Of a DNA stretch of 64,000 nucleotides, positions 7,415 through 50,387 are shown piece by piece (positions within the stretch are counted from its first letter, which is position 1; each line of letters starts with the position of its first letter). Below the pieces are notes generated by a model, which saw nothing but the letters and a program-made list of their open reading frames with translations, made no database searches and was not told where the DNA came from. Location of the stretch: positions 209,113 to 273,112 of the forward strand of contig CALSTB010000001.1 of the NCBI GenBank assembly GCA_943789165.1. Reading direction: 5' to 3'. This DNA comes from an uncultured Bacteroidia bacterium. GTDB lineage: Bacteria > Bacteroidota > Bacteroidia > NS11-12g > UBA9320. The position numbers and the translations under genes were made by a program.

Positions 7415-9676
7415 ATGTTAGCGTTAAGACGAATACCTAAAATTAAAAAATGGCTCAAACGACTGCTCGTTGTATTGGGCTTCTATTTTGTTGTTTGTTT
7501 GCCCGAAACACTATTCGAAGAAAACTACAGCACTGTTTTAGAAGATGCCAATGGACAACTACTGATGGCACACATTGCTCCTGACGGACAATGGAGATTC
7601 CCTTTATCCGATAGCATTCCTACCAAATTTTCAACGGCATTGATTGAATTTGAAGACAGGCGATTCCAGAATCATCATGGCGTGAGCTTGTTGGCACTTG
7701 GACGAGCCACTATACAGAACATCCGGTCAAAAAGACTGGTCAGCGGCGGAAGTACCTTATCTATGCAAGTGATTCGCATGAGTCGAAAACGAACAGGGCG
7801 GAGCCTCACTGATAAGCTCAAAGAAATGGTGATGGCACTTCGACTAGAAACCAAGTACAGCAAAGAAGAGATCATGACTTTACACGCAAGTCACGCACCA
7901 TTTGGTGGTAACGTGGTTGGTTTAGAGGCGGCAAGTTGGCGGTATTTCGGACACAATGCGCACACCCTTTCTTGGGCTGAATCAGCAACGTTGGCGGTAT
8001 TGCCAAATGCACCGTCTTTGATGCATTTATCAAAAAACAGAAAAGCTTTACAGGATAAACGAAATAGATTATTGAAACGATTGTTTGACGATAAAAAATT
8101 AACGGAATTGGAATACCACACAGCCATTGCTGAACCGTTACCTGAAAAACCAAAACGATTGCCCCAGTTAACACCTCATTATATGGCATATTTCAGCGCC
8201 CAAGGTTTGACAGGCAGTAGAATCAAAACCAGTATTCAGTCTAGAATTCAATCTGGTACTAATACCATAGTCGATCGTCATTACCAGCGTAACGTAACAA
8301 AAGGAATTGCCAACATGGCTGTAGTTGTGTTGGATGTGCAAACAAAAAATGTGGTGGCATATGTGGGAAACACAAACTGCTCAGACGAGAATAAGGTGCA
8401 TGTAGACATCGCTCAGGCACCAAGAAGTACAGGTAGTATTTTAAAACCATTTTTATACGCCAAAGCAATGGAAAACGGGAAATTATCTCCTCAAACGTTG
8501 GTGGCCGACTATCCAACCAGAATCAACGGATATTCCCCACAAAACTATGAAGAGGCATACGACGGTATGGTGCCCGCTTCCCAAGCTTTGGCAAGATCTT
8601 TAAACATTCCAGCCGTCAGATTATTAAGCGATTATGGCGTTACGCAGTTTAAACAAAACCTACAGGAATTCGGACTAACCACGCTGTTTAGACCCGCTGA
8701 ACAATATGGCTTGTCTTTGATTCTAGGTGGTGCTGAAGCATCTTTATGGGACTTAAGTAGGGCGTATGCAGAGGTCTCTTCTTGTGCTCAGTCCACATCC
8801 GTAAATCCGTCTGTCTCTCCTGCAGTAGCCTACGAAGTATTGGAAGCTATGTCGTCGGTGAACCGGCCTGTGATTGAGCAGTATTGGTCGCGGTTTGATG
8901 GTAAACAAAAAATCGCATGGAAGACAGGAACAAGCTATGGTGCACGGGATGCTTGGGCCATAGGTGTGACTAAAAACCACGTGGTGGCAGTATGGGTTGG
9001 AAATGCTTCTGGAGAAGGCGTTCCTGGTATGACGGGAAGTAACACTGCTGCGCCTGTATTATTCGAGGTTTTTCAGCTACTTCCAAAATCCGAATGGTTT
9101 ACCAAACCTACACGTGATATGCAGTTTGTTAATCTATGCAAACAAAGTGGTCAGCGAATGGGGCAACACTGTGATGAAACCATTAAGGCTTATTTGCCAA
9201 ATGCCTGCATGCCATCACCTTCTTGTGTGTTTCATCAAAAAATACATGTTTCAAAAACCACGGGAGAACGCGTTTTTGCAGGCTGCGAATTGCCTGGAAA
9301 CACACAAACTAAATCATGGTTTGTGATACCAACAGCGGCAGAGAGTTATTATAAATCCAACCACCCAGAGTATGTGCCACTACCAAAGTTTAAAAAGGAC
9401 TGTGCTGAAAATACACAAGACCTAGACATCTTATATCCGTTACGAAACAGTGTGATCCACATACCTAAATTGTTATCTGGTGAAAAAGGAAAGGTAATCT
9501 TCGAGGCAGTTCATCGACGTGGTGATGCAGAGTTGTTTTGGTATTTGGATAAAACATTTTTAACTACGACTACTGACGTACATCAAGTCGAATTTCAGCC
9601 GAGCAAGGGCAAACACATGCTCACGGTAACGGACGAAAATGGGTTTGCTGTGGTGAGGAGTTTTGAAGTGGAATAA
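7415..9676 (+). CDS. pbpC: penicillin-binding protein 1C (bifunctional transglycosylase/transpeptidase)
   Basis: GT51 motifs (EDRRF, GGSTLSMQ), a transpeptidase STGSILKP motif and a PBP1C-type C-terminal domain. The ATG at 7415 precedes the TM anchor. Confidence 0.85.
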   Translation: MLALRRIPKIKKWLKRLLVVLGFYFVVCLPETLFEENYSTVLEDANGQLLMAHIAPDGQWRFPLSDSIPTKFSTALIEFEDRRFQNHHGVSLLALGRATIQNIRSKRLVSGGSTLSMQVIRMSRKRTGRSLTDKLKEMVMALRLETKYSKEEIMTLHASHAPFGGNVVGLEAASWRYFGHNAHTLSWAESATLAVLPNAPSLMHLSKNRKALQDKRNRLLKRLFDDKKLTELEYHTAIAEPLPEKPKRLPQLTPHYMAYFSAQGLTGSRIKTSIQSRIQSGTNTIVDRHYQRNVTKGIANMAVVVLDVQTKNVVAYVGNTNCSDENKVHVDIAQAPRSTGSILKPFLYAKAMENGKLSPQTLVADYPTRINGYSPQNYEEAYDGMVPASQALARSLNIPAVRLLSDYGVTQFKQNLQEFGLTTLFRPAEQYGLSLILGGAEASLWDLSRAYAEVSSCAQSTSVNPSVSPAVAYEVLEAMSSVNRPVIEQYWSRFDGKQKIAWKTGTSYGARDAWAIGVTKNHVVAVWVGNASGEGVPGMTGSNTAAPVLFEVFQLLPKSEWFTKPTRDMQFVNLCKQSGQRMGQHCDETIKAYLPNACMPSPSCVFHQKIHVSKTTGERVFAGCELPGNTQTKSWFVIPTAAESYYKSNHPEYVPLPKFKKDCAENTQDLDILYPLRNSVIHIPKLLSGEKGKVIFEAVHRRGDAELFWYLDKTFLTTTTDVHQVEFQPSKGKHMLTVTDENGFAVVRSFEVE

Positions 9677-9781
9677 GGAAAGTGTGATACATATCCTGTG
9701 TGTTTAATGTGCACAATTTCAAACTTATCCATAGTGTATTGCGTTGTTTGATAAACGTGTTTCAATCATGTATTATGCACT

Positions 9782-10464
9782 ATGATCAAAGGCAGAGGAA
9801 CTTCCATTAATTCAGAAAATCGTTTTGACAAGCACCAATATGTGGCTGATGAAGGAGAACGATTGGAAGACATTGGGGCGTCGAACACCAAAATCATCGA
9901 GATACAAGCCAAAAGCATTTTAAACCAAGTATTAAGTCCAGACATACCCATGCCTTGGAGTATGAATCCCTATCAAGGTTGTGAACATGGCTGTAGCTAT
10001 TGTTATGCCCGACCCACCCATGAATTTTGGGGATACAGCGGTGGTGTGGATTTTGAGAATGTCGTTTTAGTTAAAAAAGACGCGCCTCAATTACTTAAAC
10101 AGAAGTTTATGAGTCGCAGTTGGAAAGGGGAACCCATAATGATGAGTGGCAATACAGATTGTTACCAACCAGTCGAACGCAAACTCGAGATCACTCGAGG
10201 TTTGCTCAAAGTGTGCCAAACCCACAAAAACCCTGTTGGTATAATCACCAAAAACAGTCTGGTGACCAGAGATATTGACCTTTTAAGAGATATGGCCAAA
10301 GACCAGTTGGTGCAAGTCATATTTAGTATCACCACTTTAGACGACAGTTTGAGACGCATTCTTGAACCTCGGACAGCCTCAGTAAAAAGCAAATTAAACG
10401 CCGTTGAACGACTCACAGAAGCGGGTGTTCCTGTAGGCGTCATGATGGCTCCAATTATTCCGGC
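9782..10464 (+). pseudogene. PA0069-family radical SAM protein, 3'-truncated by an IS terminal fragment
   Basis: KGRGTSINSENRF start and a CxxxCxxC cluster (CEHGCSYCY). The reading frame runs into IS-end sequence at 10465, so the last ~20 residues of the track ORF are IS-encoded. Confidence 0.8.
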
Positions 10465-10527
10465 TGTACGTCTTCAGCGAAAGTTGAACTTTTTGGGTCA
10501 AAAGCTAAGAGAGAGTTCATGCTAATT
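10465..10527 (-). mobile_element. solo right-end (IRR) remnant of the IS3-family type 2 element
   Basis: 63 bp match the IRR end of the IS copies at 27170 and 50331 (tgtacgtcttcagcgaaagttgaac...gttcatgctaatt). It is closest to the 50331 copy. Confidence 0.9.
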
Positions 10528-10690
10528 CAACCGCTCATACACTTTCTTCAACATATAACTCTTCACTAGACCACCGAACTCCTTGTCGTCCATCATCTTC
10601 GTGAAGATATCTTGATTTTGTTCCATACGACCAATTAGTTTACCTATAAAGAGGTCTTTAAAACATATTATTGTGTATTAACTCTCAAAG
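10523..10690 (-). pseudogene. possible C-terminal remnant of a type I restriction enzyme R subunit (HsdR)
   Basis: The minus-strand translation ..DLFIGKLIGRMEQNQDIFTKMMDDKEFGGLVKSYMLKKVYERLN* resembles HsdR C-terminal tails. There is no upstream coding continuation. Recognition is by memory only. Confidence 0.3.
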
Positions 10691-10822
10691 AGAGAAGAAT
10701 CAGATGATAGGTCAAGATAAAAGTACGTTCAAGTCCTTTTGCTCATTGACGGCATAGTTCCTAATTTGAAGTAATTATCTTTATTTTTGATTGACAGATG
10801 CGACAAAACCAATATTTTTAAT

Positions 10823-11833
10823 ATGTTAAAGAACTGCCTTCAATTTTTGCTAATAATTTTTCTTTTTGGGTGTGGTAATAGCACAAGTAATAAGGAAATA
10901 GATATGAATTCACTTTCAATGAAGCTAGTGAAACAAGTTGACGGTAAAGTTCTTTATAGAGAAGAGCCATTTAGCGGGAAATTAGTTAAGTATGACTCTT
11001 TTGGGAATATAAAGTTTTCGAGTCTGTATGTTAATGGACTTAAAGAAGGGAAGACCATCTACCTTAATGAAGGGAAAATTACAATTGAGGTGGTTTTTGA
11101 TTCAGGAATGAGGGTTGGAAAGTATCTGGAATTTTACCCCAATCAAGACACAATGAGAGTGGGGTTTTATTCCAAGGGTAAGAAAGATAGCACTTGGACA
11201 CGATATTTTGAAGATGGTCAGATAGAAAGTATAATTAGATATACAAATGACTCCATGAACGGTAAATTCATTATTTACCATCAAAATGGTCACATTAAAA
11301 CCGAAGGCGAACATCTGGACGGGAAAGAGCACGGACGCTGGGATTTTTATGATAGTTTAGGTCGATGGACAAATGGAGGGAATTATGATAATGGAGTAAT
11401 AATTACACGGATTACGGAGGACCCTCCAAGAGCCATTCATAAGAAGGGCTCCGCTATTTTATCGGACACTTTTGATAATGGACAAATCAAACATACATAT
11501 CCCAGAAAAAACGAAAAACCTCATGGAGATTGGATTTGGCATTATGAAAATGGACAGGTGAGAAGAATTGTGCATTTTGAAAACGGAAAGGCTCAAGGCA
11601 AGGTGGAGCGTTTTTACGAAGACGGTTCGCTAAAAAACTTTGAAACAAGAATCGATGGAACCCGAGTAGGAGAGACCAAGTCTTTTTACACCTCAGGAAA
11701 GTTGGAATCCCAAGGTCAATACGAACCTAATGGTAAAAAAGACGGGACGTGGCTGTTTTACTCCGAGACAGGTGATTTGGTTAAGAAAATTGAATACCGA
11801 AAGGGGAAACTTATCAAAGAAGACGTCTTTTAA
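10823..11833 (+). CDS. MORN-repeat-variant lipoprotein (YwqK-like family)
   Basis: Lipobox LFGCGN followed by repeated G.K.G.W..Y..NG motifs. The ATG at 10823 is preferred. Confidence 0.7.
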   Translation: MLKNCLQFLLIIFLFGCGNSTSNKEIDMNSLSMKLVKQVDGKVLYREEPFSGKLVKYDSFGNIKFSSLYVNGLKEGKTIYLNEGKITIEVVFDSGMRVGKYLEFYPNQDTMRVGFYSKGKKDSTWTRYFEDGQIESIIRYTNDSMNGKFIIYHQNGHIKTEGEHLDGKEHGRWDFYDSLGRWTNGGNYDNGVIITRITEDPPRAIHKKGSAILSDTFDNGQIKHTYPRKNEKPHGDWIWHYENGQVRRIVHFENGKAQGKVERFYEDGSLKNFETRIDGTRVGETKSFYTSGKLESQGQYEPNGKKDGTWLFYSETGDLVKKIEYRKGKLIKEDVF

Positions 11834-11936
11834 TCGTAATTTCTCCTTGTGAAGATGAGTTACTTGTAAGTCTTCAAACTAATGTTCACCAGAGATAGTG
11901 AAAATTAAGTCATAAATTTAATCTTTGCAACAGGTC

Positions 11937-12120
11937 CAAAATGCGGACATATTGAGCCACGCACGAACGGGATAGAGTGAACCACTAAAAACGGGTAATA
12001 TTGAACTATGTAATCCGTATAAGAGTGACTCACTCCCTTACATAGAAGCGATTTTAACCTTCTGTTTTACACGGCTCACTTTTATCCGGAATGGGTGGTT
12101 AACTTTACCCGATATTTCCA
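11937..12120 (+). repeat. 184-bp direct repeat copy 1, with iterated ..TGAACC/TGAGCC.. motifs (partner 17392..17574)
   Basis: Near-identical to 17392-17574. It contains 5-6 spaced motifs: atattgagccac, agagtgaaccac, atattgaactat, agagtgactcac, acacggctcac. Confidence 0.9.
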
Positions 12121-12179
12121 AGCATGAACTCTCTCTTAGTTTTTAACTCAAAAAGTTCAACTTTCGCTGAAGACGTACA
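12121..12179 (+). mobile_element. solo IRR remnant of the IS3-family type 2 element, inverted relative to 10465..10527
   Basis: Reverse complement of the IS right end (agcatgaactctctcttag...gaagacgtaca). It is closest to the 27170 copy. Confidence 0.9.
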
Positions 12180-12266
12180 AAAAGTACATTTAACTATTTG
12201 GATAGTTGTATTATTTAATTTTTTTTATTTAATTTAACATTTATATAACATAATTAAATATTTTCT

Positions 12267-12899
12267 ATGAATGAATTTGAATTACGTGACGCTCTCAATG
12301 GGCGTAACAAAGAACAACAAAGTATAATTAAGTATTTTTATGGTTCTGGTGGATGCCTTTCTAAAGGATTAAAAGACGAGGAGTATGAAGCTCTTGTTAT
12401 GAAACGTGTAAAAGCTGTTGATTGGAAAGCAAAAGCTCTTAACAAAATTGGATTAGATGAATCTGAGGTAAATGAAATTGAACCTGTTCATTTTCAGAAC
12501 TATGTAATCAATGAAAAAAGTAAATTAGTTAGAAGAGGAAAAGACAATGTATGGAGAAGTTCTCAATATCAAATTTCATATATTCTATTCTCATCTACCC
12601 AACTGTATGTTTATCAGTATACATTTAGTATGGATTCGGGTGAAAAGAAAGAAAGAACAGAAGAATATTTCTATAAAGACATTACTAATTTTTCTTCCAC
12701 AACTGATACTGTTGAAAAAGAAGTTGTAGAAAAAGTAAATTGCCAAGGTAAATCAACGTATAAACGTACACAAGTTGAAACAAGTGATTTTGCTATAATT
12801 GTACCTGGTGATAAGTTCTATTGTGCAATGGAAGCAAACGATTATTCCGAAAAAGCTATTCAGGGTATGAAAGCTAAGTTAAGAGAAAAAAAGAGTTAA
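12267..12899 (+). CDS. hypothetical cytoplasmic protein, gene 1 of the five-gene operon (possible PH-like fold)
   Basis: 210-aa ORF with no TM segments and no family I can name. It is tightly linked to the downstream genes. Confidence 0.6.
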   Translation: MNEFELRDALNGRNKEQQSIIKYFYGSGGCLSKGLKDEEYEALVMKRVKAVDWKAKALNKIGLDESEVNEIEPVHFQNYVINEKSKLVRRGKDNVWRSSQYQISYILFSSTQLYVYQYTFSMDSGEKKERTEEYFYKDITNFSSTTDTVEKEVVEKVNCQGKSTYKRTQVETSDFAIIVPGDKFYCAMEANDYSEKAIQGMKAKLREKKS

Positions 12900-12914
12900 T
12901 AGATAATTAAATTA

Positions 12915-13448
12915 ATGTTCAATTTAAAATCATTCCAATTGGTTTGGCATTCTTCAATAATAGAAGAAATGCCAAACCAAATTGAACAGGATATCTCAGA
13001 AGCTTATGTGTGCTATAGGGAAATTAATAGACCGAAATTGACAATTGGTAAAGTAATTATTTCTTTTGTATTTGTATTATGTTTAATATTAATTACGACC
13101 TATATTACTATACATTCATTTGAAACATTGAATTTAAACTTAATATTACCAACAAAATTACTAAGTTTTAAGCTCAAATATCCATCATTATTTTTCTGTC
13201 TTATCTATTTCTCTTTACTTACAATCATTACAATCATTTATTTGAAGGAAATTCTTATAATTCCAATAATTCTATATCAAAGATATGCAGATGAGGATAT
13301 TAGAAGAAGATGTTTATTTAAACCAACTTGTTCGGAATATACAATCCTAGCTTTACGAAAATACGGTGTTATAATTGGTCTTTATAAAGCTTATGTACGT
13401 ATTTTTAAAAAATGTATTGGCAATATATACCGTATTGATTTTCCTTAA
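12915..13448 (+). CDS. membrane protein with C-terminal YidD-like domain
   Basis: Three or four TM helices, then ILYQRY..RRRCLFKPTCSEYTILALRKYGVIIGLYKAYVRIFKKC. This matches the YidD signature (C.F.PTCS.Y...A....G...G.....RI..C). Confidence 0.7.
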   Translation: MFNLKSFQLVWHSSIIEEMPNQIEQDISEAYVCYREINRPKLTIGKVIISFVFVLCLILITTYITIHSFETLNLNLILPTKLLSFKLKYPSLFFCLIYFSLLTIITIIYLKEILIIPIILYQRYADEDIRRRCLFKPTCSEYTILALRKYGVIIGLYKAYVRIFKKCIGNIYRIDFP

Positions 13449-13475
13449 AATATTGAACTTTAAATTAAAAAAATC

Positions 13476-14570
13476 ATGGGAATATTCAATAAGAATCAAA
13501 ATGAGTCTGCTTTTACAGGTGGAAAAAAAAATTGGTCAGATGTTATTAAAAATAGTGGTTCAGGTGAACTTTTAATTTGGCGACAACCAGAAGAGGATTT
13601 TAATACAAATTCCACTCTTATTGTAATGCCGGGTGAAGAAGCAATTTTTATAAAAGGTGGTACTGTTGAACAAACATTTGACAATGGTACATATAAACTT
13701 TCGACTGAAAATTATCCTTTTATTAGCAGATTAAGAAATGTATTTACAGGTGGGGTAAGTACGTTTAATTGTGTGGTTTATTTTGTTCGTAAAGCTCATT
13801 CCCAAGAAATTTTGTGGGGAACAGATTCACCAATTCAAGTACGTGATAAAATGCTTGGTGTTGCAACTAAACTAAGGGCAAGAGGAACATATAAAGTACA
13901 GATTAACAACTCAATTAAATTCCTTGAAAAACTGATTGGTAATAATGTTCCTTTTCAATTACAAGATGAACTTAACAAATATTTTGTTAATGAATTTCAA
14001 AGCAAAATCAAATCAAATATTACAAGAGCTGCAAATGAGTCAACACAAGAACTCTTAGGAATTGAGGCTAGATTAGATGAGTTTTCGGATGAAATAAGTC
14101 CGTTTATGCAGGAAACACTTGATTATTATGGTCTGAAATTAATTAAATTTACAATCGCAGCCATAAATATTGACGATGATGAACTAAGAAAGAAGTATGA
14201 TGAAATCGGTATAGATGCTATTCAAAAAATGAAAAATGCACAAGCAGACAAATCTGTCATGGGTATTCTTGGAGATGATTGGGCAAAACAACAACAAATT
14301 GATATATTAAAAGGAATTGCAAATAATGAAGGTGGTGGTGGTATTGCTTCTGCTGGTGCTGGTTTAGGTATGGGACTAGCCGCTGGTGGTGTATTTGGAA
14401 ATATGTCTCAAGAAACATTTAATCCACAACAATCTGAACAGCCAATTTCCCAAAACTCAAATGATAATCCTGTTGAAAAAATCAAACAACTCAAAGAGAT
14501 GTTAGATTTAGATGTAATTACTCAGGAGGAGTTTGATGCTAAGAAAAAGGAAATATTAAGTAAAATGTAA
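13476..14570 (+). CDS. SPFH/Band-7 (YdjI / COG4260-like) protein with Gly-rich linker and C-terminal SHOCT domain
   Basis: The N-terminus (LIWRQPEEDFNTNSTLIVMPGEEAIFIKGG...) resembles YdjI-type SPFH proteins. The C-terminus (IKQLKEMLDLDVITQEEFDAKKKEIL) matches the SHOCT motif. Confidence 0.7.
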   Translation: MGIFNKNQNESAFTGGKKNWSDVIKNSGSGELLIWRQPEEDFNTNSTLIVMPGEEAIFIKGGTVEQTFDNGTYKLSTENYPFISRLRNVFTGGVSTFNCVVYFVRKAHSQEILWGTDSPIQVRDKMLGVATKLRARGTYKVQINNSIKFLEKLIGNNVPFQLQDELNKYFVNEFQSKIKSNITRAANESTQELLGIEARLDEFSDEISPFMQETLDYYGLKLIKFTIAAINIDDDELRKKYDEIGIDAIQKMKNAQADKSVMGILGDDWAKQQQIDILKGIANNEGGGGIASAGAGLGMGLAAGGVFGNMSQETFNPQQSEQPISQNSNDNPVEKIKQLKEMLDLDVITQEEFDAKKKEILSKM

Positions 14571-14585
14571 TTTAGGTTATTGATT

Positions 14586-15266
14586 ATGAAAAAAAACAAA
14601 ATACTTTGGTACATATTAAACTCAATCTTTTTGATTGTTTTTAATCTTTATTTTTTCTTACTTAAAGGTACAGACCATATAACCTCAGTTTGGATTTCTT
14701 ATGGTTCAATTCATTTCGCATATTTTATGCTTTTAAGCACTCCCTTTTTAATTCGAAAAAGTAGTGTTTCTGTTGATTATGGAAGACCTTTATTCATAAT
14801 AACCACAATTTATTTTTTTTTTGCTTTTGTAGTAGGTGTTTCATTTATTATAATGTCACCTGAAAGTAACACATTAACAATACTTGTTCAAGTAACAATA
14901 ACTGCCGTTTTTGGAATTACACTATTAGTAAATTTAATTGCCAACGAACATACAGCAGTAAATGTTGAGAAAAGAGAAGATGAACTAAAGTATGTCAAGG
15001 AAGCATCGTCAAAATTAAACTCACTTATTAATCAGTTGGTGGACAAAAGACTTCAAAAGTTAGTTGAAAAAGCCTATGATTTAGTTCATAGTAGTCAAGT
15101 TAAATCTGCAAAAGAGGTTCAATCAATCGAACAAGATGTATTTAAAGAAATCTCAGAATTAGCTGAATTGATTAAAAACAAGAACTTTGACAATATTGAA
15201 GAAGTAGTAAATAATATTTGCAATTTGGCAGAGGAGAGAAACAGTAAATTAAAACTTCTAAACTAA
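14586..15266 (+). CDS. polytopic membrane protein with C-terminal coiled-coil domain
   Basis: Four or five hydrophobic helices, then a charged helical tail (EKREDELKYVKEASSKLNSLINQL...). Confidence 0.6.
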   Translation: MKKNKILWYILNSIFLIVFNLYFFLLKGTDHITSVWISYGSIHFAYFMLLSTPFLIRKSSVSVDYGRPLFIITTIYFFFAFVVGVSFIIMSPESNTLTILVQVTITAVFGITLLVNLIANEHTAVNVEKREDELKYVKEASSKLNSLINQLVDKRLQKLVEKAYDLVHSSQVKSAKEVQSIEQDVFKEISELAELIKNKNFDNIEEVVNNICNLAEERNSKLKLLN

Positions 15267-15270
15267 AACT

Positions 15271-15864
15271 ATGGTTCAAGAAATAGTAGAATTAACTTGT
15301 CCTGGTTGTGGTGACAGAGTTACAACTGGACAAACGGAATGTAAATTTTGTCATAAACCGATAGTAATATCAACTTTTAATAGTGTGTATTCAATGCCAA
15401 TACAAGAGGTTAATAAATATGCAAATGAATACAGAAAAGCCCTCTCTGACAACCCTAACAACAAAGATTTAAATAATTCGATTGCAATGTGTTATTTAAA
15501 ACTGAAATTGTATGATAAAGCACTAACTGCTTTTGAAAAAGCAGTTGAAGATAATTTTGATAATTCGGAAACATTTTTTTATGCATCAATATGTTTGTTA
15601 CAAGGCAAAAAAGCATTCCTTACAAAACGCCCGATAATTGATAAAATTGAAGAATATCTTAATGCGGCCTTGATGATTGAACCCAAAGGAATTTATTATT
15701 ACTTCTGGTCTTATATTAAATATGACTATTTTAATCGAAAATTTTTCAAAACAAATCCGACTTTTGATGAAGTTTTAAAGATGTCAATTGACAATGGGGT
15801 ATCAGAGTTAGATAAAGAACAACTTTTCTCAATTTTAAATGTACCTAAACCTGACTGTATTTAA
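15271..15864 (+). CDS. zinc-ribbon protein with TPR-like helical repeats
   Basis: N-terminal CPGCG..x11..CKFCH zinc ribbon, followed by TPR-like segments (NNSIAMCYLKLKLYDKALTAFEKAV). Confidence 0.6.
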   Translation: MVQEIVELTCPGCGDRVTTGQTECKFCHKPIVISTFNSVYSMPIQEVNKYANEYRKALSDNPNNKDLNNSIAMCYLKLKLYDKALTAFEKAVEDNFDNSETFFYASICLLQGKKAFLTKRPIIDKIEEYLNAALMIEPKGIYYYFWSYIKYDYFNRKFFKTNPTFDEVLKMSIDNGVSELDKEQLFSILNVPKPDCI

Positions 15865-15910
15865 TTAAAAATAGACTAAAGCTTAATAGTAAAACAAGTC
15901 CATTGAAATA

Positions 15911-15939
15911 AAAAACCATTTACGACCTGGTTTTGTTTT
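15911..15939 (+). terminator. intrinsic terminator of the five-gene operon
   Basis: Hairpin aaaaacca-tttacgac-ctggtttt followed by a T-rich run. Confidence 0.55.
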
Positions 15940-16000
15940 AATTTATTTTATATCCTAAAATTAAAACATTATCTTTGATTTATAATTAAAGATTAATGCT

Positions 16001-16627
16001 ATGAACTTCTATTACTCCAGAATCTCCAACATATCTCAGTCAGCATCGAGACAATATCATAATTTTAAAAATATTGAAGGTTTTGATTCAAATAATTTAT
16101 TTGTAGATAAAGTACAAGGTAATGTTCCATTTCTGGAACGAGTGGAGGCTGCAAAGTTATTTGATACCGTAACAGCGACTAATGGTAAGCATACTATTGT
16201 AGTGGATTCAATTGATAGACTAGGTCGCTCATTAGTAGATATATTGAATACCATCGAATTATTTAATAAAAACAGTATTAACCTTAAATCATTAAAAGAA
16301 GGATTTGAGACTTTGTTACCTAATGGTGATGAGAACCCTATTGCAAAAGTTGTTTGTTCAGTGATGGGGAGTATTGGTGAAATGGAACGTAACCGAATCA
16401 AGCAAAGAACTGCTGAGGGTATTGCTATTGCTAAGGCTAAAGGTAAATACAAAGGTCGTAAGGTTGGTTCTAGTCAATCTAATGATAAACTACTTGAAAG
16501 ACACAAAGTGGTAGTGACTAAGCTTAAAAAAGGTCTTACGGTTAGAGAAATAAATTCAATGACTGGTAAGAGTAGTGCTACCATCATAAAGGTGAAAAAG
16601 GTACTTGAGCAAAAAGGAGAGCTATAA
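16001..16627 (+). CDS. small serine recombinase (resolvase/invertase family) with C-terminal HTH
   Basis: YYSRISNISQ catalytic-Ser region, DSIDRLGRS, GEMERNRIKQRTAEG, and a C-terminal HTH (GLTVREINSMTGKSSATI). Confidence 0.8.
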   Translation: MNFYYSRISNISQSASRQYHNFKNIEGFDSNNLFVDKVQGNVPFLERVEAAKLFDTVTATNGKHTIVVDSIDRLGRSLVDILNTIELFNKNSINLKSLKEGFETLLPNGDENPIAKVVCSVMGSIGEMERNRIKQRTAEGIAIAKAKGKYKGRKVGSSQSNDKLLERHKVVVTKLKKGLTVREINSMTGKSSATIIKVKKVLEQKGEL

Positions 16628-16628
16628 A

Positions 16629-16655
16629 AAAAGCCATCGGTGAGGATGGCTTTCT
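16629..16655 (+). terminator. hairpin terminator after the resolvase gene
   Basis: The stem is aaagccatc-ggtgag-gatggcttt. The T-tract is weak. Confidence 0.45.
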
Positions 16656-16703
16656 ATATTGAGTAAGTTTTTAACCTTATTCGATAACTAATTTGTAACT
16701 GTT

Positions 16704-17072
16704 GTGTATACCGTCAGCAATCATGAAAAGGCATTGATAGAAGTGATAAAGTACGGTAGTAAAATATTCACTGAGCCAGACTTAAAGAAAACCAGAACGG
16801 GAAATGAAAAGATATATGCTAAAGCTCTTCATAATATTTTGCAAGCAATGAAGGGCAGGCGCATTTTTGACCGAGTAGGATTTGATTTATCCAAACAACA
16901 TAAACCAGACAAACCAGATATTAAACTAGCGACAGAATACGAACGCTGGACTTTTGAAACAAGTAGAGGTAATTGGATTAACAACAAGACTAAAAAACCC
17001 CTAACGGGATATGCTGCACGTTTTGAGTTATTAGAGATGCTGGCGTTTCATGTTGACGATGAACTGAGTTAG
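16704..17072 (+). CDS. hypothetical protein, probably 5'-truncated (its first codons are an IS terminal scar)
   Basis: 122-aa ORF starting on GTG. Positions 16705-16720 (tgtataccgtcagcaa) equal the IRL tip of the type 2 IS. Confidence 0.4.
   Translation: MYTVSNHEKALIEVIKYGSKIFTEPDLKKTRTGNEKIYAKALHNILQAMKGRRIFDRVGFDLSKQHKPDKPDIKLATEYERWTFETSRGNWINNKTKKPLTGYAARFELLEMLAFHVDDELS
16705..16720 (+). mobile_element. 16-nt IRL tip scar of the IS3-family type 2 element
   Basis: Exact match to the left-end tip seen (as reverse complement) at 28637-28652 and 51797-51812. Confidence 0.6.
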
Positions 17073-17083
17073 ACTATGCAAAA

Positions 17084-17109
17084 AGGCAAGAATAAACTTG
17101 CCTCTTTTT
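17084..17109 (+). terminator. intrinsic terminator
   Basis: Stem aggcaag-aataaa-cttgcct followed by cttttt. Confidence 0.55.
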
Positions 17110-17391
17110 AATTAACATACCTGCTCATATGATAAAGCAATTCAAACATACGCAAAGACACCACTTTAGATAATTAATCCCTCCGTGGGTGCCTAAATAT
17201 ACTCCCAACGTCAAGTTACATCATGTAAGGGGGGTAGTAAAAACTTTTATTATTTAGTCTATTGAAACCAAGCGATACACTTTATCTTTTGTTGTCAAGT
17301 TTTGAAATAGAGCGGTAGGGGGCTATCTCAGACGTTTGAGGGATATCATCAGAAACGCAGTAATCTGATTTTTACACAAGTGCAACTTGTG

Positions 17392-17574
17392 CAAAATGCG
17401 GACATATTGAACCACGCACAACGGGATAAAGTGAACCACTAAAAACGGGTAATATTGAACTATGTAATCCGTATAAGAGTGACTCACTCCCTTACATAGA
17501 AGCGATTTTAGGCAACTGTTTTACACGGCTCACTTTAATCCGATATGGGTGGCTAACTTTACCCGATATTTCCA
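17392..17574 (+). repeat. 184-bp direct repeat copy 2 (partner 11937..12120)
   Basis: Same orientation as copy 1, with a few substitutions and a 1-bp indel. Confidence 0.9.
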
Positions 17575-17908
17575 GTATAGAAAGCAATTAAAGAAGCAAT
17601 TACCTCAACTGATAGAAAAATGGGAAAAGGTAATTGGGGTGAAATGCAATGATTGGGGAGTAAAGCAAATGAAAACCAAATGGGGTGCTTGTAACACCGA
17701 TGATAAACGAATTTGGCTAAACCTTGAATTAGCTAAGAAACCAATTCTTTGTTTAGAGTATATCTTAGTCCATGAGTTGGTCCATCTGCATGAGCGAAAC
17801 CACAATGATAGGTTCATTGCCTTAATGGATAAGTTCATGCCCAAATGGAGGTTGCACAGAGATGAATTAAATAGTTTACCCATCGTTCATAACGATTGGG
17901 GGTATTAA
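17549..17908 (+). pseudogene. DUF45/YgjP-like (M48-type HExxH) metal-dependent hydrolase, C-terminal half only
   Basis: WGVKQMKTKWGACN, HELVHLHERNH and FMPKWR are motifs of the type I R-M-associated DUF45 family. The N-terminal ~110 aa are absent, and the track start lies inside the 184-bp repeat. Confidence 0.65.
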
Positions 17909-18096: not shown

Positions 18097-18549
18097 ATGC
18101 CGATTTACATACATTTAGCGAACATGATTGTTGACAAAAAAATTGTCGACAAAAAGTATGATGGTGGTTGTAATCAGTTTCGAATTGATTGGGATATTGA
18201 AGTTGGAGAACATAATCAAGAGGATGATGAACTATTTGGCGTCGCAAGAATGAATGCTGATGAATTTGACATAGAAAAGCTAATTCAAGGAGGTTTGGAG
18301 TATAATGAAGATACAGAAAACTCTAATGATTTTGTAATAATCACAAGGTATGATGGAGCGCTTTGGCAAACTGACTGGCTTGATAATAATGGGATTTTTG
18401 CATGGCATTCAAATTGTCGTCAGGAACAAAAAGAAAGAGCCGCACAGATTGGAGTAATGACAATGCAAGAAGTTATTGAGTTAGGTGAAAAGGGAGTCAA
18501 TGTATTCGAAACAATAAAAACAGGAACCAACAAGACTAAACTGAATTAA
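18097..18549 (+). CDS. hypothetical acidic protein
   Basis: 150-aa ORF with no recognisable family. Confidence 0.45.
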   Translation: MPIYIHLANMIVDKKIVDKKYDGGCNQFRIDWDIEVGEHNQEDDELFGVARMNADEFDIEKLIQGGLEYNEDTENSNDFVIITRYDGALWQTDWLDNNGIFAWHSNCRQEQKERAAQIGVMTMQEVIELGEKGVNVFETIKTGTNKTKLN

Positions 18550-19050: not shown

Positions 19051-19065
19051 ACGTTGCTACTTGTG

Positions 19066-19137
19066 TAGCCCCTAGGGGAATCGAACCCCTCTTTCCAGGA
19101 TGAAAACCTGGCGTCCTAACCGATAGACGAAGGGGCC
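19066..19137 (-). tRNA. tRNA-Glu (anticodon UUC), no encoded CCA
   Basis: Cloverleaf read by hand: acceptor GGCCCCT/AGGGGCT, anticodon stem CCAGG/CCTGG with loop TTTTCAT, and T-arm AGGGG-TTCGATT-CCCCT. Confidence 0.85.
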
Positions 19138-27005: not shown

Positions 27006-27169
27006 TGGCTGCTGGAGTATCTACTTCCTCAGAAGTTGATTCACTGCCCGAAGCAGCTTCAGGTTTTGGACTAGCATCAGTATTTCGTTCATATAATTCG
27101 CCGTCTGGAGCTTTGCCAACAACTCCATCAGGGAGCTTTGTTCCTTCAAGACTAACTACATAACTTGAT
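26998..27169 (-). pseudogene. ccoP: 3' fragment of ccoP (last ~57 codons), truncated by IS copy A
   Basis: SSYVVSLEGTKLPDGVVGKAPDGELYERNTDASPKPEAASGSESTS equals the C-terminus of the intact ccoP at 51842..52753. The first 19 codons of the track ORF are IS-encoded. Confidence 0.9.
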
Positions 27170-27226
27170 TGTACGTCTTCAGCGAAAGTTGAACTTTTTG
27201 AGTTAAAAACTAAGAGAGAGTTCATG

Positions 27227-28201
27227 CTAATTTAGTTTAAATTTCTGATACTGTTTTTTACGAGCCTTAAGTGTCCTGATTTTGGTCTTTTTCCTTTGCT
27301 TCAATTTCACTTCGCCTTTTCCGTAGTAAACCTCAGCAGGAGTTAAGTTCTGCAAAGATTCGTGGTAGCGTTTGTAGTTGTAATACTCCACGAACTCGTT
27401 GAGTTTTCTTTCCAGTTGTTCAGGACTAAAATAATTGTCTAGTTTGACCACATTCTTCATGGATCGGTGATAGCGTTCTATCTTTCCTTGGGTCTGTGGA
27501 TGTAACGGACGGCCTCTAATATGCTCCATATTTTGATTGCCAAGATATTCTGCAAGTTCGTTTGAGATATAACAAGATCCATTATCAGATAGTAGTTTTG
27601 GCTTGTTGGTCTGTGACACCTCAGAGGCCAATAAGGCTTGATCTAGGGTATCTTTCACGTCTTGTGCCTTCATGCTAGAGCACAGCCTCCAGTTGACTAT
27701 AAATCGACTATAGTCATCTAATATGGTTGACAGGTAATACCAACCCCAACCGAAGATCTTGAAGTAAGTGAAGTCCGTCTGCCACATCTGGTTGACTCGT
27801 GTGGTTTTATCCTTAAAACTGTCCGAAGCACTCATGATTCTAAAGGATGGTGTGGTTATTAATCCATTTTCTTTTAGTATGCGATAAACACTAGATTCGC
27901 TGATGTAATAGCTGTACGTATCGGTAATATGCCAGGCCACTTCACGTGACGAAAGCTCTGGCCTTTCTAAAGCTATCTCAACTACCTTGTCCCGGTCTTG
28001 CTCATTGATTCTATTCCAAGAACCTTGCCTTTTGCTGGGCTTACGTGCCAGTCCTTCATAGCCTAACTCGGTGTAAGCTCTGTACCAGTTGTAAAATGTT
28101 GTTTTGTTAATTTTAAGCTCTCTCAGAGTGCGGATAACACCCAAATCTGATTGCTCTACAAGTTGAATCAACTCGTATTTCTCTTGTTGACTGTAATGCA
28201 T
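27227..28201 (-). CDS. IS3-family transposase OrfB (rve/DDE)
   Basis: WQTDFTYF, LLSDNGSCY and HPQTQGKIERYHRSMK motifs. Confidence 0.9.
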   Translation of the reverse strand: MHYSQQEKYELIQLVEQSDLGVIRTLRELKINKTTFYNWYRAYTELGYEGLARKPSKRQGSWNRINEQDRDKVVEIALERPELSSREVAWHITDTYSYYISESSVYRILKENGLITTPSFRIMSASDSFKDKTTRVNQMWQTDFTYFKIFGWGWYYLSTILDDYSRFIVNWRLCSSMKAQDVKDTLDQALLASEVSQTNKPKLLSDNGSCYISNELAEYLGNQNMEHIRGRPLHPQTQGKIERYHRSMKNVVKLDNYFSPEQLERKLNEFVEYYNYKRYHESLQNLTPAEVYYGKGEVKLKQRKKTKIRTLKARKKQYQKFKLN

Positions 28202-28212
28202 ATACTTGGGCC

Positions 28213-28563
28213 TTATGAGTCTTCTCCATTTACGTTTTTTTTCAAAGTTCTTACCTCTAGGGATAGTTCAGCTACCAGTTCTTTTAATGAACGGTTTTCC
28301 CCCTTGAGCTCTTGAACTTCTGTAGTGCTGGCCTCACGCATGGTATCGCCTGTTAAACGACGTTTGCCTGCTTCCATGAAGTCTTTGGCCCACTTGTAAT
28401 AGTTGCCCTGGCTAATACCTTCTTTTCGACATAACTCGGCAATCGTGGTTTCTCCACGCATACCTTCAATAATGATTCTAATCTTTTCTTCTGAACTGTA
28501 GACCTTTCTAGTCTTTCTTTTTAATTCACTGATCAGTGAACTTGTACTTTTCTTCTTTACCAT
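28213..28563 (-). CDS. IS3-family transposase OrfA
   Basis: HTH (TIAELCRKEGISQGNYYKW) plus a leucine-zipper tail. Confidence 0.9.
   Translation of the reverse strand: MVKKKSTSSLISELKRKTRKVYSSEEKIRIIIEGMRGETTIAELCRKEGISQGNYYKWAKDFMEAGKRRLTGDTMREASTTEVQELKGENRSLKELVAELSLEVRTLKKNVNGEDS
28235..28242 (-). promoter_or_regulatory. programmed -1 frameshift site (A8 run) joining orfA and orfB
   Basis: On the minus strand, in ttgaaaaaaaacg, the -1 frame reads ..KKKRKWRRLIRPKYMHYSQQEK with no stop into orfB. Confidence 0.7.
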
Positions 28564-30415: not shown

Positions 30416-33400
30416 ATGCAAAAAACTTACTTATTTATTTTACTAGCATCTTTATGCTTTCTTTCCTTTGAAACACAAGCAACCGTAATATTTGTAGACT
30501 ATAGTTCTTCGGGTACTAATACTGGTGCATCCTGGACCAATGCATTTACCACACTTCAGCCTGCCCTGAATGCAGCCTCTGCTGGGGATAGTATTTTTAT
30601 AGCTGAGGGCACATATAAACCTACGCTAGATCCCTCTTCAGGTACTGCAAGTGGGAATACCCGTGATTATGCCTTTTACCTTGATAAAGATATTAAAATA
30701 TACGGAGGGTTTGCTGGTACAGAGGCTGCATTAAGCCAACGTGATATTGGCAGTAACCCCGTAATTTTAAGTGGAGATATAGGTACATCAGGGTCAAACT
30801 CAGACAACTGCCACCATATTTTTATAACAGACGGGCTCAGCTCTGCTGCAGTGCTAGATGGGGTAACTATTACTGGAGGTAATGCAAATGCAATCAGGTT
30901 CAATAACCTATTCCGGACAAACAATTGAGAAGAAATTCGGCGGCGGTTTGTATAATTATTCTTCATCTCCTACACTTACCAATTTAACTATAAGCGGCAA
31001 TGCAGCAAGTCATGCCGGCGGCGGTTTGTATAATTATTCTTCATCTCCTACACTTACCAATGTAACTATAAGCGGCAATACAGCAGGTAGTTATAACGGC
31101 GGCGGTTTGTATAATTATTCTTCATCTCCTACACTTACCAATGTAACTATAAGCGGCAATACAGCAATTAGCGGAGGCGGAGGTATATTTAATTTTAATG
31201 GTTCATCTCCTACTATTACTAATACTATCTTCTGGGGAAACAAAACAGGGTCTTCGACTCCTACTACTAATGTAGCAGGTGCAGATATTAAGAACGCAAG
31301 TAGTTCTACAGCTATTATCACCTATTCGCTAGTACAACTAGCTAGCTCCAGCTATACTTCAGGAAATAATAATTTGCTCACCACAAATACCAATATGGTT
31401 TATGCAACAGATCCTTCATTTAACGATGCAAGTGATCCAGATGGTACTGATGATATATGGATGACGGCGGATGATGGGTTAAATATTATTAATTCTCCTG
31501 CTTACGGTGTAGGAAAAAGCTCAGGCGCTCCTTCTACCGATATTACGGGTGCTTCACGAGCGTCATCTCCATCTATGGGAGCGTATGAAGGTTTTATTAC
31601 GCGGTATTACGTAGATATTGACGCTACGGGCACCGGTGCAGGTACAAGTTGGACTAATGCCTATACAGGGCTTCAAGACGCTATAGATGCATCCTCAGTA
31701 GGGGATGAAATATGGGTCGCAGAAGGTACATATATACCCAATGTAATTCCTCAATTTCAGTTTACATCTACCGACAATAGAAATAAAACATTTGCCATAA
31801 ACAAAAATATAGCAATTTATGGTGGATTTGATGGTACTGAATCCGTCCTATCGCAAAGGGACGCTAAATTAAACATTACTGTATTAAGCGGAGATCTTGG
31901 AACTATTGGTACAGTAACAGATAATTGCTACCATGTTGTGATGACTGCTAATTTAAATTCAACTGCAATCATCGATGGATTTACAATTCAAGATGGTAAT
32001 GCAAACGGAGGTAACTATACAAATCAGTATGGTGGTAGAAACTTTGCAAGAGAACTAGGAGGGGGAATTGCTAACAATTTTTCTTCACCTACTCTTTCCA
32101 ATCTAATCATCAAAAACAATAGGGCAAAAATTGGAGCAGGTGTCAGTAACAGCGCTTCCAGTTCATATCTTATTAATTTAACTTTCGTAGACAATATTGC
32201 TACTGAAAAAGGAGGGGGAGTAGCTAATATAGCTACTGGATCTCCAAGTATTATTAATTGTGTTTTTAGTGGGAACCTAGCTGATGATTTTGGTGGTGGT
32301 ATATACTCTGAAGACTCACCTACAATAACCAATTGCACCTTTTTCAATAACAAAGCAACTACCACTTCAAAAGGCGGTGGTGGTGTATATGCAATAAATG
32401 CAGGAACTACTACGGTATCAAATTGTATATTTTTTGGAAATAAAATAGGCTCATCTACGACTAATGTTGGTTCAGATATTAAAAACGGTACTGGTCATAC
32501 AACCACTGTAGACTACAGTATGGTACAACTTGCTAGCGGAAGTTATACCTCTGGAAACACCAATGCCCTCACATCTGCAACCAATATGGTCTATAACCAA
32601 GACCCATTATTCAGCGGTCATGGTGGTCCAGATGGAGTAGATAATGTATGGATGACGGAGGATGACGGACTCAGATTAAATAGTAATAGCCCTGCAGTAG
32701 ATGCGGGACTTAATAGTGCCATAAGTGGGTATTCTACAGATATTGTAGGTACTGCTCGTGTGGTGAATACTAACGTAAATATGGGAGCTTATGAGGTTCT
32801 TTGTTCTGAAACGACTGAAACGATAACAGCAAATGTTTGTGATAGCTATACCTCTCCAAGTGGAAAGACTTGGACAACAAGCAACACGTATATGGATACC
32901 ATTGCAAATGATGCGGGTTGTGATAGTGTAATCACGGTGAACCTTACGGTTCGCGATAAGACAACAGAAACGATAACAGCAAATGTATGTGATAGCTATA
33001 CCTCTCCAAGTGGAAAAACTTGGACAACAAGCAACACGTATTCAGATACGATTCCAAACACTGCGGGTTGTGATAGTGTTATCACGGTGAACCTTACGGT
33101 TCGCGATAAGACAACAGAAACGATAACAGCAAATGTATGCGATAGCTATACCTCTCCAAGTGGAAAAACTTGGACAACAAGCAACACGTATTCAGATACG
33201 ATAGCAAACACTGCGGGTTGTGATAGTGTTATCACGGTGAACCTTACGGTTCGCGATAAGACGACTGAAACGATAACAGCAAATGTATGTGATAGCTATA
33301 CCTCTCCAAGTGGAAAAACTTGGACAACAAGCAACACGTATTCAGATACGATAGCAAACACTGCGGGTTGTGATAGTGTTATCACGGTGAACCTTACGGT

Positions 33401-36400: not shown

Positions 36401-36776
36401 ACAAAACGTGATTACCTACAACCACAACGACAATACGATTGATCTAGCACAAAACACTGTGTTCTATCGATTACGTCAGGTGGACTTTGATGGCACCACG
36501 GCTTACTCACCAGTAAGACGAGTAGACTTTGAAGGCAGCATCATACCAAACAGCGTAACGCTTTATCCAAACCCAACAAAAGGAACGGTTACGGTTAGCT
36601 TTACAGACGATGAGGCTGAAAGTCATGCGATTAAAGTAATTGACAACCTCGGAAGAGAGCTGTACAAGCAAACCTTCGACGGACAAGCCATAGAGCTTGA
36701 TTTGTCGAGCCAAGCAACGGGCATCTACTTTATCATTTTAGATTCTGGTGAATCCTTTAAAGTGATTAAACAGTAG
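30416..36776 (+). pseudogene. giant T9SS-secreted right-handed beta-helix/adhesin-like protein, split by a frameshift near 30885-30928
   Basis: ORF1 (30416..30928) carries the signal peptide and the first beta-helix module. ORF2 (30882..36776) continues the same module in another frame and ends in a T9SS CTD (LYPNPTKGTVTVSF...IYFIILDSGESFKVIKQ). Confidence 0.7.
32811..34310 (+). repeat. 10 tandem 150-bp (50-aa) coding repeats inside the giant protein
   Basis: The unit TETITANVCDSYTSPSGKTWTTSNTY.DTI.N.AGCDSVITVNLTVR.K recurs at exactly 150-bp phase. The first five or six units are nearly identical at nucleotide level. Confidence 0.95.
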
Positions 36777-50314: not shown

Positions 50315-50387
50315 CTTGATTCGTTTATAGTGTACGTCTTCAGCGAAAGTTGAACTTTTGGGGTCAAAAGCTAAGAGAGAGTTCATG

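Follow-up and report, generated by a model that had tools for sequence, protein, structure and literature searches.

A mobile five-gene membrane operon from a Bacteroidia bacterium belongs to a gene-cluster family linked to HerA/FtsK-type ATPases and polymorphic toxins

A 64,000-nucleotide stretch of DNA from an uncultured Bacteroidia bacterium (GenBank assembly GCA_943789165.1, contig CALSTB010000001.1, positions 209,113 to 273,112 of the forward strand; hereafter the window) carries an operon of five plus-strand genes, here called g1 to g5 (12267-15864). By surveying homologues of these genes, we found that they are a functional, horizontally transferred operon, and that they represent a motor-less and cargo-less form of a large gene-cluster family. 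A dedicated HerA/FtsK ATPase and polymorphic toxin-immunity cassettes are tightly linked to this family, as are, in one clade, genes encoding EssC, a YukD-like protein and WXG100; this association is invisible in the window itself. The ATPase, the toxin cassettes and the EssC/YukD-like/WXG100 links point to protein export and interbacterial antagonism. We therefore propose, with a probability of about 0.45, that the five proteins form the membrane-proximal chassis of an undescribed ATPase-driven toxin-export system, a function more likely than one in phage defence or in a Psp-like stress module.

The five-gene operon and its conservation

The five open reading frames (ORFs) of the operon are separated by intergenic gaps of 15, 27, 9 (or 15) and 4 bp, which reproduces the coordinates and the range of gaps (4-27 bp) given for five same-strand ORFs by a first-pass annotation made from the letters of the window. 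That annotation had also assigned a transmembrane (TM)-anchored YidD domain, an SPFH-SHOCT protein, a Zn-ribbon/TPR protein and a multi-TM protein (g4), leaving g1 unmatched, and our profile searches and AlphaFold2 (AF2) models agree with these assignments.

The gene g1 (12267-12899) encodes a cytoplasmic protein of 210 aa that belongs to an uncharacterised family, with no match in Pfam, NCBIfam, PHROGs or PADLOC. Its AF2 model (predicted local distance difference test score, pLDDT, 89.5) consists of four N-terminal helices followed by a beta-sandwich with a C-terminal helix cap. When the model was compared with the PDB using Foldseek, nothing significant was returned, the best probability (~0.6) falling on PH domains, and a profile search against PDB sequences gave no match; the modelled fold appears weakly PH-like. 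The gene g2 (12915-13448) encodes a membrane protein of 177 aa with 2-3 TM helices (hydropathy) and a C-terminal YidD domain at aa 111-165, which was recognised by PF01809 (E=6e-14, 52 bits, cut-off 27) and TIGR00278 (E=5e-12, 45.6 bits, cut-off 40) and keeps the three conserved cysteines. The usual setting of yidD is the rnpA-yidD-yidC gene order. The architecture of g2 is unusual, with YidD fused behind TM helices and the gene placed outside that setting.

The protein encoded by g3 (13476-14570, 364 aa) has an SPFH domain of the Band_7_1 type (PF13421, E=3e-34), a Gly-rich hydrophobic linker and a C-terminal SHOCT domain (PF09851, E=3e-6), and it possesses no TM helix; its SHOCT tail was the only part of g1-g5 with a PHROGs match. 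The ORF of g4 (14580-15266) encodes a 4-TM protein, and its true start is probably the ATG at 14586, since most of its 400 homologues have the length of 226 aa that this start would give. In the AF2 model of g4 (pLDDT 88), the fourth TM helix continues as a long helix into a cytoplasmic helical bundle; the model found no fold match in the PDB and lacks an OB-fold, and neither g2 nor g4 matched NfeD. The last gene, g5 (15271-15864), encodes a cytoplasmic protein of 197 aa with an N-terminal Zn-ribbon (CPGC...CKFC) and TPR repeats (TPR_17, E=1e-6; TPR_19, E=2e-6), without a TM helix. None of the five proteins had a Pfam match to the WXG100, YukD, EssB, EssA or EsaA components.

Homologues of g1 are numerous, forming 1134 clusters at 90% identity, and at 50% identity there are 1026 representatives, almost all of which stand alone as proteins of 200-250 aa. 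When one genome per GTDB species was scanned, 77 loci emerged, whose hosts are Bacteroidota, Clostridia (Ruminococcus albus AR67 and Roseburia among them) and Spirochaetota/Treponema, together with single metagenome-assembled genomes of Acidobacteria and Alphaproteobacteria. The expectation of the first-pass annotation that these genes co-occur as a system was borne out among the 45 species-level loci with enough flank to judge: g5 was present in 44, g2 in 42, g3 in 41 and g4 or its positional counterpart in 36, with the complete set of five in 33. Their order is g1-g2-g3-g4-g5 in Bacteroidota and a circular permutation of this, g5-g1-g2-g3-g4, in Clostridia and Spirochaetota, where g5 lies upstream of g1. 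Some Clostridia have a reduced set of g5-g1-g2 only, and g2 is truly absent from four loci (L048, L060, L073 and L074). A Bacteroidales/Prevotella sub-clade has a divergent g3 and, in the place of g4, a TM protein of ~250 aa; homology between this positional variant and g4 was considered and rejected (hhalign probability 0.3).

Within the clade of loci that contains the window, which lacks the ATPase, the ratio of nonsynonymous to synonymous substitution rates (dN/dS) was 0.05-0.3 for all five genes at dS of ~0.9-2. Given these values, the five-gene form is functional and no wreck. The operon is beyond a chance run of ORFs, as it recurs in dozens of genomes under purifying selection.

The operon had also been called mobile, and the wider survey is in line with this. 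Identities between phyla reach 60-87%, and the flanking genes mostly differ between loci, those that recur being XRE-type helix-turn-helix (HTH) regulators, tyrosine integrases, relaxases and serine recombinases; in the host of the window, AT-richness is a further sign of mobility. Conservation is mosaic along the operon. When six loci (L016, L018, L032, L048, L056 and L073) were compared with the window, g3 and g5 were 81-87% identical and g4 58-66%, with g1 at 51-65% and g2 at 34-55%, a pattern suggesting that a g1-g2 module has recombined with a g3-g4-g5 module.

In Bacteroides, the variant form with the divergent g3 and the non-homologous substitute for g4 lies behind an XRE-type HTH gene (L040, L041, L087 and L090), and it occupies one fixed site near pgeF-obgE-adk-hpt in three species. 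The copy in B. finegoldii JCM 13345 (L087) looks degraded, with tblastn matches to g1 and g3 in separate pieces; the RefSeq labels of the B. finegoldii copy read HTH, hypothetical, YidD, SPFH, hypothetical and zinc-ribbon. Plasmid carriage was considered and rejected, because the sole "plasmid" match (B. finegoldii "plasmid 5") contains rny, obgE, adk and hpt and appears to be chromosomal.

Linkage to an ATPase, toxin-immunity cassettes and EssC

About 15% of the species-level loci contain a block of ~5-6 kb between g2 and g3. The block opens with a gene encoding a soluble, single-domain P-loop ATPase of ~890 aa, which has a match to DUF87/HerA and a weaker one to FtsK_SpoIIIE. Among solved proteins, HerA is its closest relative, and the nearest ones include HerA proteins of anti-phage systems (8wiv and 8j4u). 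Where present, the ATPase gene always lies between g2 and g3, and the order of the full form is g5-g1-g2-[HerA/FtsK-type ATPase]-[toxin and immunity cassettes]-g3-g4.

A metagenome scan anchored on this ATPase found at least 309 loci, of which the best 80 were kept for analysis. Both g3 and g4 lay downstream of the ATPase gene in all 25 loci with at least 5.5 kb of downstream sequence. Upstream, at least one of g5, g1 and g2 was found in 41 of the 52 loci with at least 2.5 kb of sequence, and all three in 33; the ATPase loci without upstream g5, g1 and g2 have a double-Zn-ribbon or TPR protein at that position. Among the units of the family, the most constant is the g3-g4 pair.

The interval between the ATPase gene and g3 is variable, and it contains ORFs with 40-60% Asp/Glu over the first 200-450 aa and almost no Lys or Arg. 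Such polyacidic regions form the N-terminus of most of the larger toxin proteins. Among the polyacidic proteins that we read residue by residue, most leaders start with the motif MDE[ED][FY], and the C-terminus is a non-acidic domain that varies. The leader looks as if it mimics DNA, serving as a polyanionic signal for a HerA-type pump. Polyacidic ORFs directly follow the ATPase gene in L003/L014, L017, L019, L022, L035, L049, L085 and most of L091-L170; many of the leaders have DVPEDIPE-type repeats, and the protein in L049 has no non-acidic C-terminal region. The toxin gene of R. albus AR67 (L039:14457-16946) contains a run of N in the record, which makes its leader unreadable; the C-terminal ~300 aa of this toxin are 60% identical to those of the toxin in L017, and the leaders differ.

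The toxin domains found in the interval were TNT (5), the papain-fold toxin Gln_amidase (5), GH-E (2), Endonuclea_NS_2, Colicin-DNase/WHH and a C39-like domain. Beside the toxin genes lie small ORFs; three of these small ORFs match the immunity families SUKH, SUFU and Imm33, and several toxin-immunity pairs often stand in tandem. A conserved pair was found after the ATPase gene in ~30 of L091-L170 and in L085 (7618-8549), encoding a DUF6782/SprT-like HExxH metallopeptidase of ~220 aa and a 98-aa protein with no family match; the two may serve as the default toxin and immunity protein, or the peptidase may process leaders together with its partner. A polyacidic ORF, the DUF6782 and 98-aa pair, or both were present in 53 of the 57 complete intervals.

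Secreted polymorphic toxins are defined by C-terminal toxin domains that vary and by a downstream gene for cognate immunity (PMC3482391, Zhang et al. 2012), and, judged from sequence, the interval has the anatomy of such a system. A constant N-terminus, a variable C-terminal toxin and an adjacent immunity gene were all found in the ATPase-bearing relatives and not in the window, where no ATPase homologue, polyacidic ORF, toxin domain or WXG100 gene is present within the 64 kb. The ATPase, g1-g5 and the polyacidic leaders are all unlisted in Zhang et al. 2012 (PMC3482391).

One clade replaces the usual ATPase. In L088 (Oscillospiraceae; 7880-17210), the order is g3-g5-x-g1-g2-g1', followed by a gene encoding a 1556-aa protein with FHA, two TM helices and FtsK_SpoIIIE (EssC-like), after which come genes for a YukD-like protein and for WXG100 (E=2e-11). 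A separate contig (L173, 3-4005), whose g1 is 77% identical, shows the order of L088 up to the EssC-like gene, at which it breaks off. In L174, a relative at a slightly greater distance, g2 is followed by a HerA-type ATPase gene. Since L088 and L173 carry an EssC-like ATPase and L174 a HerA-type one, two members of the FtsK/HerA superfamily, one of them known as the motor of type VII secretion, occupy one operon slot. Duplication of g1 was seen in the L088/L173 clade, and also in L116, L161 and L170.

In a neighbour-joining tree of g3, the clade of the window (the window, L013, L006, L016, L018, L024, L032, L048, L056, L073 and L074) is wholly ATPase-less and lies nested within clades that bear the ATPase. 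Loci with and without the ATPase are intermixed at several points of the tree, which implies that the module of motor and cargo was lost or gained repeatedly. The nested position, together with the ring of insertion sequence (IS) debris and a truncated gene around the island in the window, would also suit a functionless remnant, decaying after a full toxin-export locus lost its ATPase and cargo. That explanation is highly improbable and largely refuted by the selection analysis: the window and at least 10 related cassettes have all five ORFs intact, dN/dS lies at 0.05-0.3 for dS of ~1-2, and the 27-bp gap between g2 and g3 holds no trace of lost genes.

A candidate toxin-export chassis and its alternatives

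If the family exports toxins, g3 with its SPFH-SHOCT architecture and the 4-TM protein g4 would build a scaffolded site on the cytoplasmic membrane. Judging by domain type, the TM-anchored YidD protein g2 could act there as a membrane insertion or translocation element, and the Zn-ribbon/TPR protein g5 and the PH-like g1 may be cytoplasmic adaptors or chaperones. The hexameric pumping ATPase, when present, would thread the polyanionic, DNA-like leader of the toxin into the membrane site for export. As for the window copy, either its partners would be encoded elsewhere, or it would do the part of the work that needs no cargo, for instance by organising a membrane site or assisting insertion. 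The joint reading of these parts, which we put forward tentatively, is that a HerA-clade ATPase recognises and threads a DNA-mimicking polyacidic leader via an SPFH-scaffolded complex of the TM-YidD and 4-TM proteins, delivering exchangeable toxins to competitors, and that the five-gene form is a motor-less version with a membrane function of its own.

Several points weigh against export as the function of the family. The window copy and ~85% of the species-level loci have neither ATPase nor toxin, yet they are conserved, which means that the five genes have a function needing neither. In family and fold searches, no component of g1-g5 resembled a known channel or a membrane subunit of a type VII secretion system (T7SS). 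Bacteroidota and Spirochaetota are two-membraned, and an outer-membrane component is not evident. The EssC link is confined to one divergent clade, represented by two contigs, and the nearest solved relatives of the ATPase include HerA of anti-phage systems. Finally, the roles given to g1, g2 and g5 follow from domain type alone, and export by any member of the family is hypothetical.

In Bacillota, T7SSb (EssC/YukD/WXG100) exports polymorphic toxins of the LXG type, and the full forms of our family resemble it in combining polymorphic toxin-immunity cassettes with an ATPase of the FtsK/HerA superfamily. T7SS has ATPases of this superfamily as its motors (PMC3482391), and in the clade described above genes for an EssC-like ATPase, a YukD-like protein and WXG100 stand beside g1, g2, g3 and g5. 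A further likeness is the SPFH scaffold, as a flotillin/SPFH scaffold promotes T7SS assembly in S. aureus (PMC5718613). The family differs from T7SSb in its usual ATPase, which is a soluble, single-domain member of the HerA clade with ~890 aa and not EssC, and in its toxins, which carry polyacidic leaders instead of WXG or LXG domains. The membrane subunits EssA, EssB, EsaA and Ecc were not detected in the family, and the window copy is without an EssC/EccC-type ATPase, WXG100 gene or toxin, the EssC type occurring only in L088 and L173.

The five genes could instead be a stand-alone module for membrane homeostasis or envelope stress, in which cytosolic g3 is recruited by g4 and g2 to stabilise or survey the membrane, and the ATPase-toxin cassettes are secondary insertions. 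We consider this unlikely. YdjI/SamI of B. subtilis is a cytosolic SPFH protein recruited by two membrane proteins, SamG and SamH (bioRxiv 10.64898/2026.02.06.704340; PMC8581546), and it belongs to the Band_7_1 family as does g3, which has no TM helix next to the TM-bearing g2 and g4. Most loci are without ATPase or toxin and under purifying selection, and the Bacteroides variant form is stably placed among housekeeping genes. Working in the other direction, the ATPase family is found only with g3-g4 (25/25), which suggests co-function over opportunistic insertion, and a housekeeping stress module would not usually pass rapidly between phyla, as is seen here at 60-87% identity. Neither PspA nor another ESCRT-III-like partner is recurrent nearby.

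A close relationship to the pspA-ydjGHI (samGHI) operon, of which the cassette had been taken for a variant, also did not hold up. The two have in common a cytosolic Band_7_1 SPFH gene beside genes for potentially recruiting membrane proteins, and a gene for a Zn-ribbon protein in the same operon; as a family, only Band_7_1 SPFH is common to both. YdjG consists of two Zn-ribbons, an NTF2-like domain and a TM helix, YdjH of TPM and a coiled coil, and the B. subtilis SPFH protein has a Zn-ribbon at its C-terminus (Ravi et al. 2024, PMC11237479). In contrast, g5 combines one Zn-ribbon with TPR and lacks both a TM helix and an NTF2-like domain, g4 does not match TPM, and g3 ends in SHOCT; these mismatches of g4 to YdjH and of g5 to YdjG count against the homeostasis explanation as well. 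The window family has two extra genes (g1 and TM-YidD), is mobile and toxin-linked, and is without PspA, as the first-pass annotation had supposed: PspA was neither among the recurrent neighbour clusters nor in the Pfam survey of the flanks. Operons of the SPFH-NfeD type (stomatin/YqiK-YqiJ) are similar in that an SPFH gene adjoins one for a small multi-TM partner, here g3-g4, and differ in that g4 lacks NfeD or an OB-fold and g3 belongs to the TM-less Band_7_1 subfamily with SHOCT.

A role in anti-phage defence had been suggested too. By this account, the membrane proteins would sense infection and, as an abortive-infection system, act on the membrane, for instance via the "haemolytic" YidD domain or g4, and in fuller versions the HerA-type ATPase would control NADase, nuclease or peptidase effectors as in SIR2-HerA and DUF4297-HerA. 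The setting invites such an explanation, for the operon lies in a mobile, AT-rich island adjoining a recombinase and IS debris, the closest solved relatives of the ATPase include defence-system HerA (8wiv and 8j4u), its gene adjoins NADase and nuclease effectors as in the HerA anti-phage systems, and the TNT NADase and nuclease repertoire overlaps with defence effectors. Integrases, relaxases, AbiD, AbiEi and SoFic also occur among the neighbours: 150 flanking genes included 2 AbiD, 1 AbiEi and 1 SoFic, so ~4/150 are defence-like by raw count, and the same genes included 4 integrases and 2 relaxases, the rest being mostly housekeeping genes. Against PADLOC-DB v2, g1-g3 had no match, and g4 and g5 gave only noise (E>=0.013). 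The system had no match in the phage collection and IMG/VR. Unlike those of the HerA anti-phage systems, the effectors of the family are encoded as separate, polymorphic proteins that carry polyacidic leaders and have cognate immunity genes, and the family has five further conserved membrane and adaptor genes. The SUKH, SUFU and Imm33 immunity families, the tandem pairs and the swapping of C-termini on a constant leader mark secreted interbacterial toxins, and in one clade the EssC, YukD-like and WXG100 set takes the ATPase slot. Abortive infection is distinctly improbable. The suggested defence module was not supported, given no significant PADLOC match, absence from the phage and viral collections searched, and few defence-like neighbours by raw count.

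The toxin-export chassis that we favour would be new. Full-text literature searches on combinations of YidD, SPFH, polymorphic toxins, DUF6782, DUF87 and SPFH anti-phage found nothing relevant, and the system is described neither in Zhang et al. 2012 nor in Kaur et al. 2020, in keeping with the earlier statement that no system of this composition is known. The domains are familiar, and the assembly lies outside every described system tested, both for g1-g5 alone and for g1-g5 with a HerA-type pump and polyacidic-leader toxins. If the proposal is true, a widespread, unannotated gene cluster of gut, rumen and termite-gut bacteria (~1000 g1 clusters at 50% identity and at least 309 metagenome ATPase loci) would be a new route of interbacterial toxin delivery, the polyacidic leader a new kind of export signal, and export a new use for a HerA-type pump. 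It would also give a first functional context to the g1 and g4 families, TM-anchored YidD paralogues, the SPFH-SHOCT architecture and DUF6782 peptidases. Even without export, the five-gene form is a conserved, mobile membrane system worth experiments.

The genomic island and its surroundings

The window also contains genes encoding PBP1C, a MORN-repeat protein, GAPDH, AlgH, FixG and a protein with a sorting domain of the type IX secretion system (T9SS). Because of these surrounding genes, the host is taken to be a Bacteroidota chromosome and the cassette an inserted low-GC island. The GC content is 0.276-0.308 over 12-16 kb and ~0.38-0.43 on both sides of the operon, so the AT-rich block seen at first pass is real.

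The island is bracketed by direct repeats, as had been noticed, with a length different from the 184 bp first given: the left copy (11926-12120), which adjoins a truncated IS end, measures 195 bp, and the right copy (17381-17574) 194 bp, at 93% identity. That these repeats are a tRNA, an att site or an RNA family was considered and rejected, as they match no tRNA and no Rfam family, and they lie outside IS sequence; they could derive from the terminus of a different element or have been duplicated as the island inserted. The right copy ends exactly at the truncation point of a YgjP-like (M48-type) metallopeptidase gene, of which a 3' fragment remains (17575-17908, plus strand; PF01863, E=1e-38, profile positions 108-206 of 207 only), and this gene is disrupted by the island. 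The remnants of a type I restriction-modification system reported earlier amount to this YgjP-like fragment only, in a survey that included no scan aimed at hsd genes.

The IS scar and the resolvase gene reported on the two sides of the operon were both found. Upstream, the end of an IS3/rve-type element (12121-12180) lies with its outer terminus toward the cassette and is a 100% reverse-complement match to 27169-27228, within a full copy of the element (27169-28563, minus strand; transposase genes 27227-28201 and 28213-28563). Downstream, still inside the low-GC island, is the gene for a serine recombinase of the resolvase/invertase type with a C-terminal HTH (16001-16627, plus strand; PF00239, E=7e-23), which also matches the Mpi-like model NF009949 (E=7e-19) below the cut-off of that model; serine recombinases adjoin the system in L022 and L088 as well. 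The hairpin after g5, described at first as a terminator, did not fare as well: a weak hairpin (15912-15939, plus strand) with a 7-bp A/U-rich stem and a 9-nt loop, followed by GUUUU, was missed by a consensus terminator scan and has a fold energy of -10.8 kcal/mol (z = -1.4), so that its role as a terminator is possible and unconvincing.

Two ORFs at the island edge, one of 122 aa (16704-17072, plus strand), with a terminator-like hairpin downstream (17084-17103), and one of 150 aa (18097-18549), had no match in Pfam, NCBIfam, PADLOC or PHROGs. A tRNA-Glu (TTC) gene (19065-19137, minus strand) lies ~1.5 kb past the right repeat and could bear on the arrival of the island. Besides the copy next to the cassette, solo copies of the ~60-bp IS end are present at 10465-10523 and 50331-50389; the former overlaps the 3' end of a radical-SAM-like ORF (9782-10525), which may be truncated thereby. 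Farther downstream, a gene (30882-36776, plus strand) encodes a 1964-aa protein with a C-terminal T9SS sorting domain (Por_Secre_tail), which supports a Bacteroidota host.

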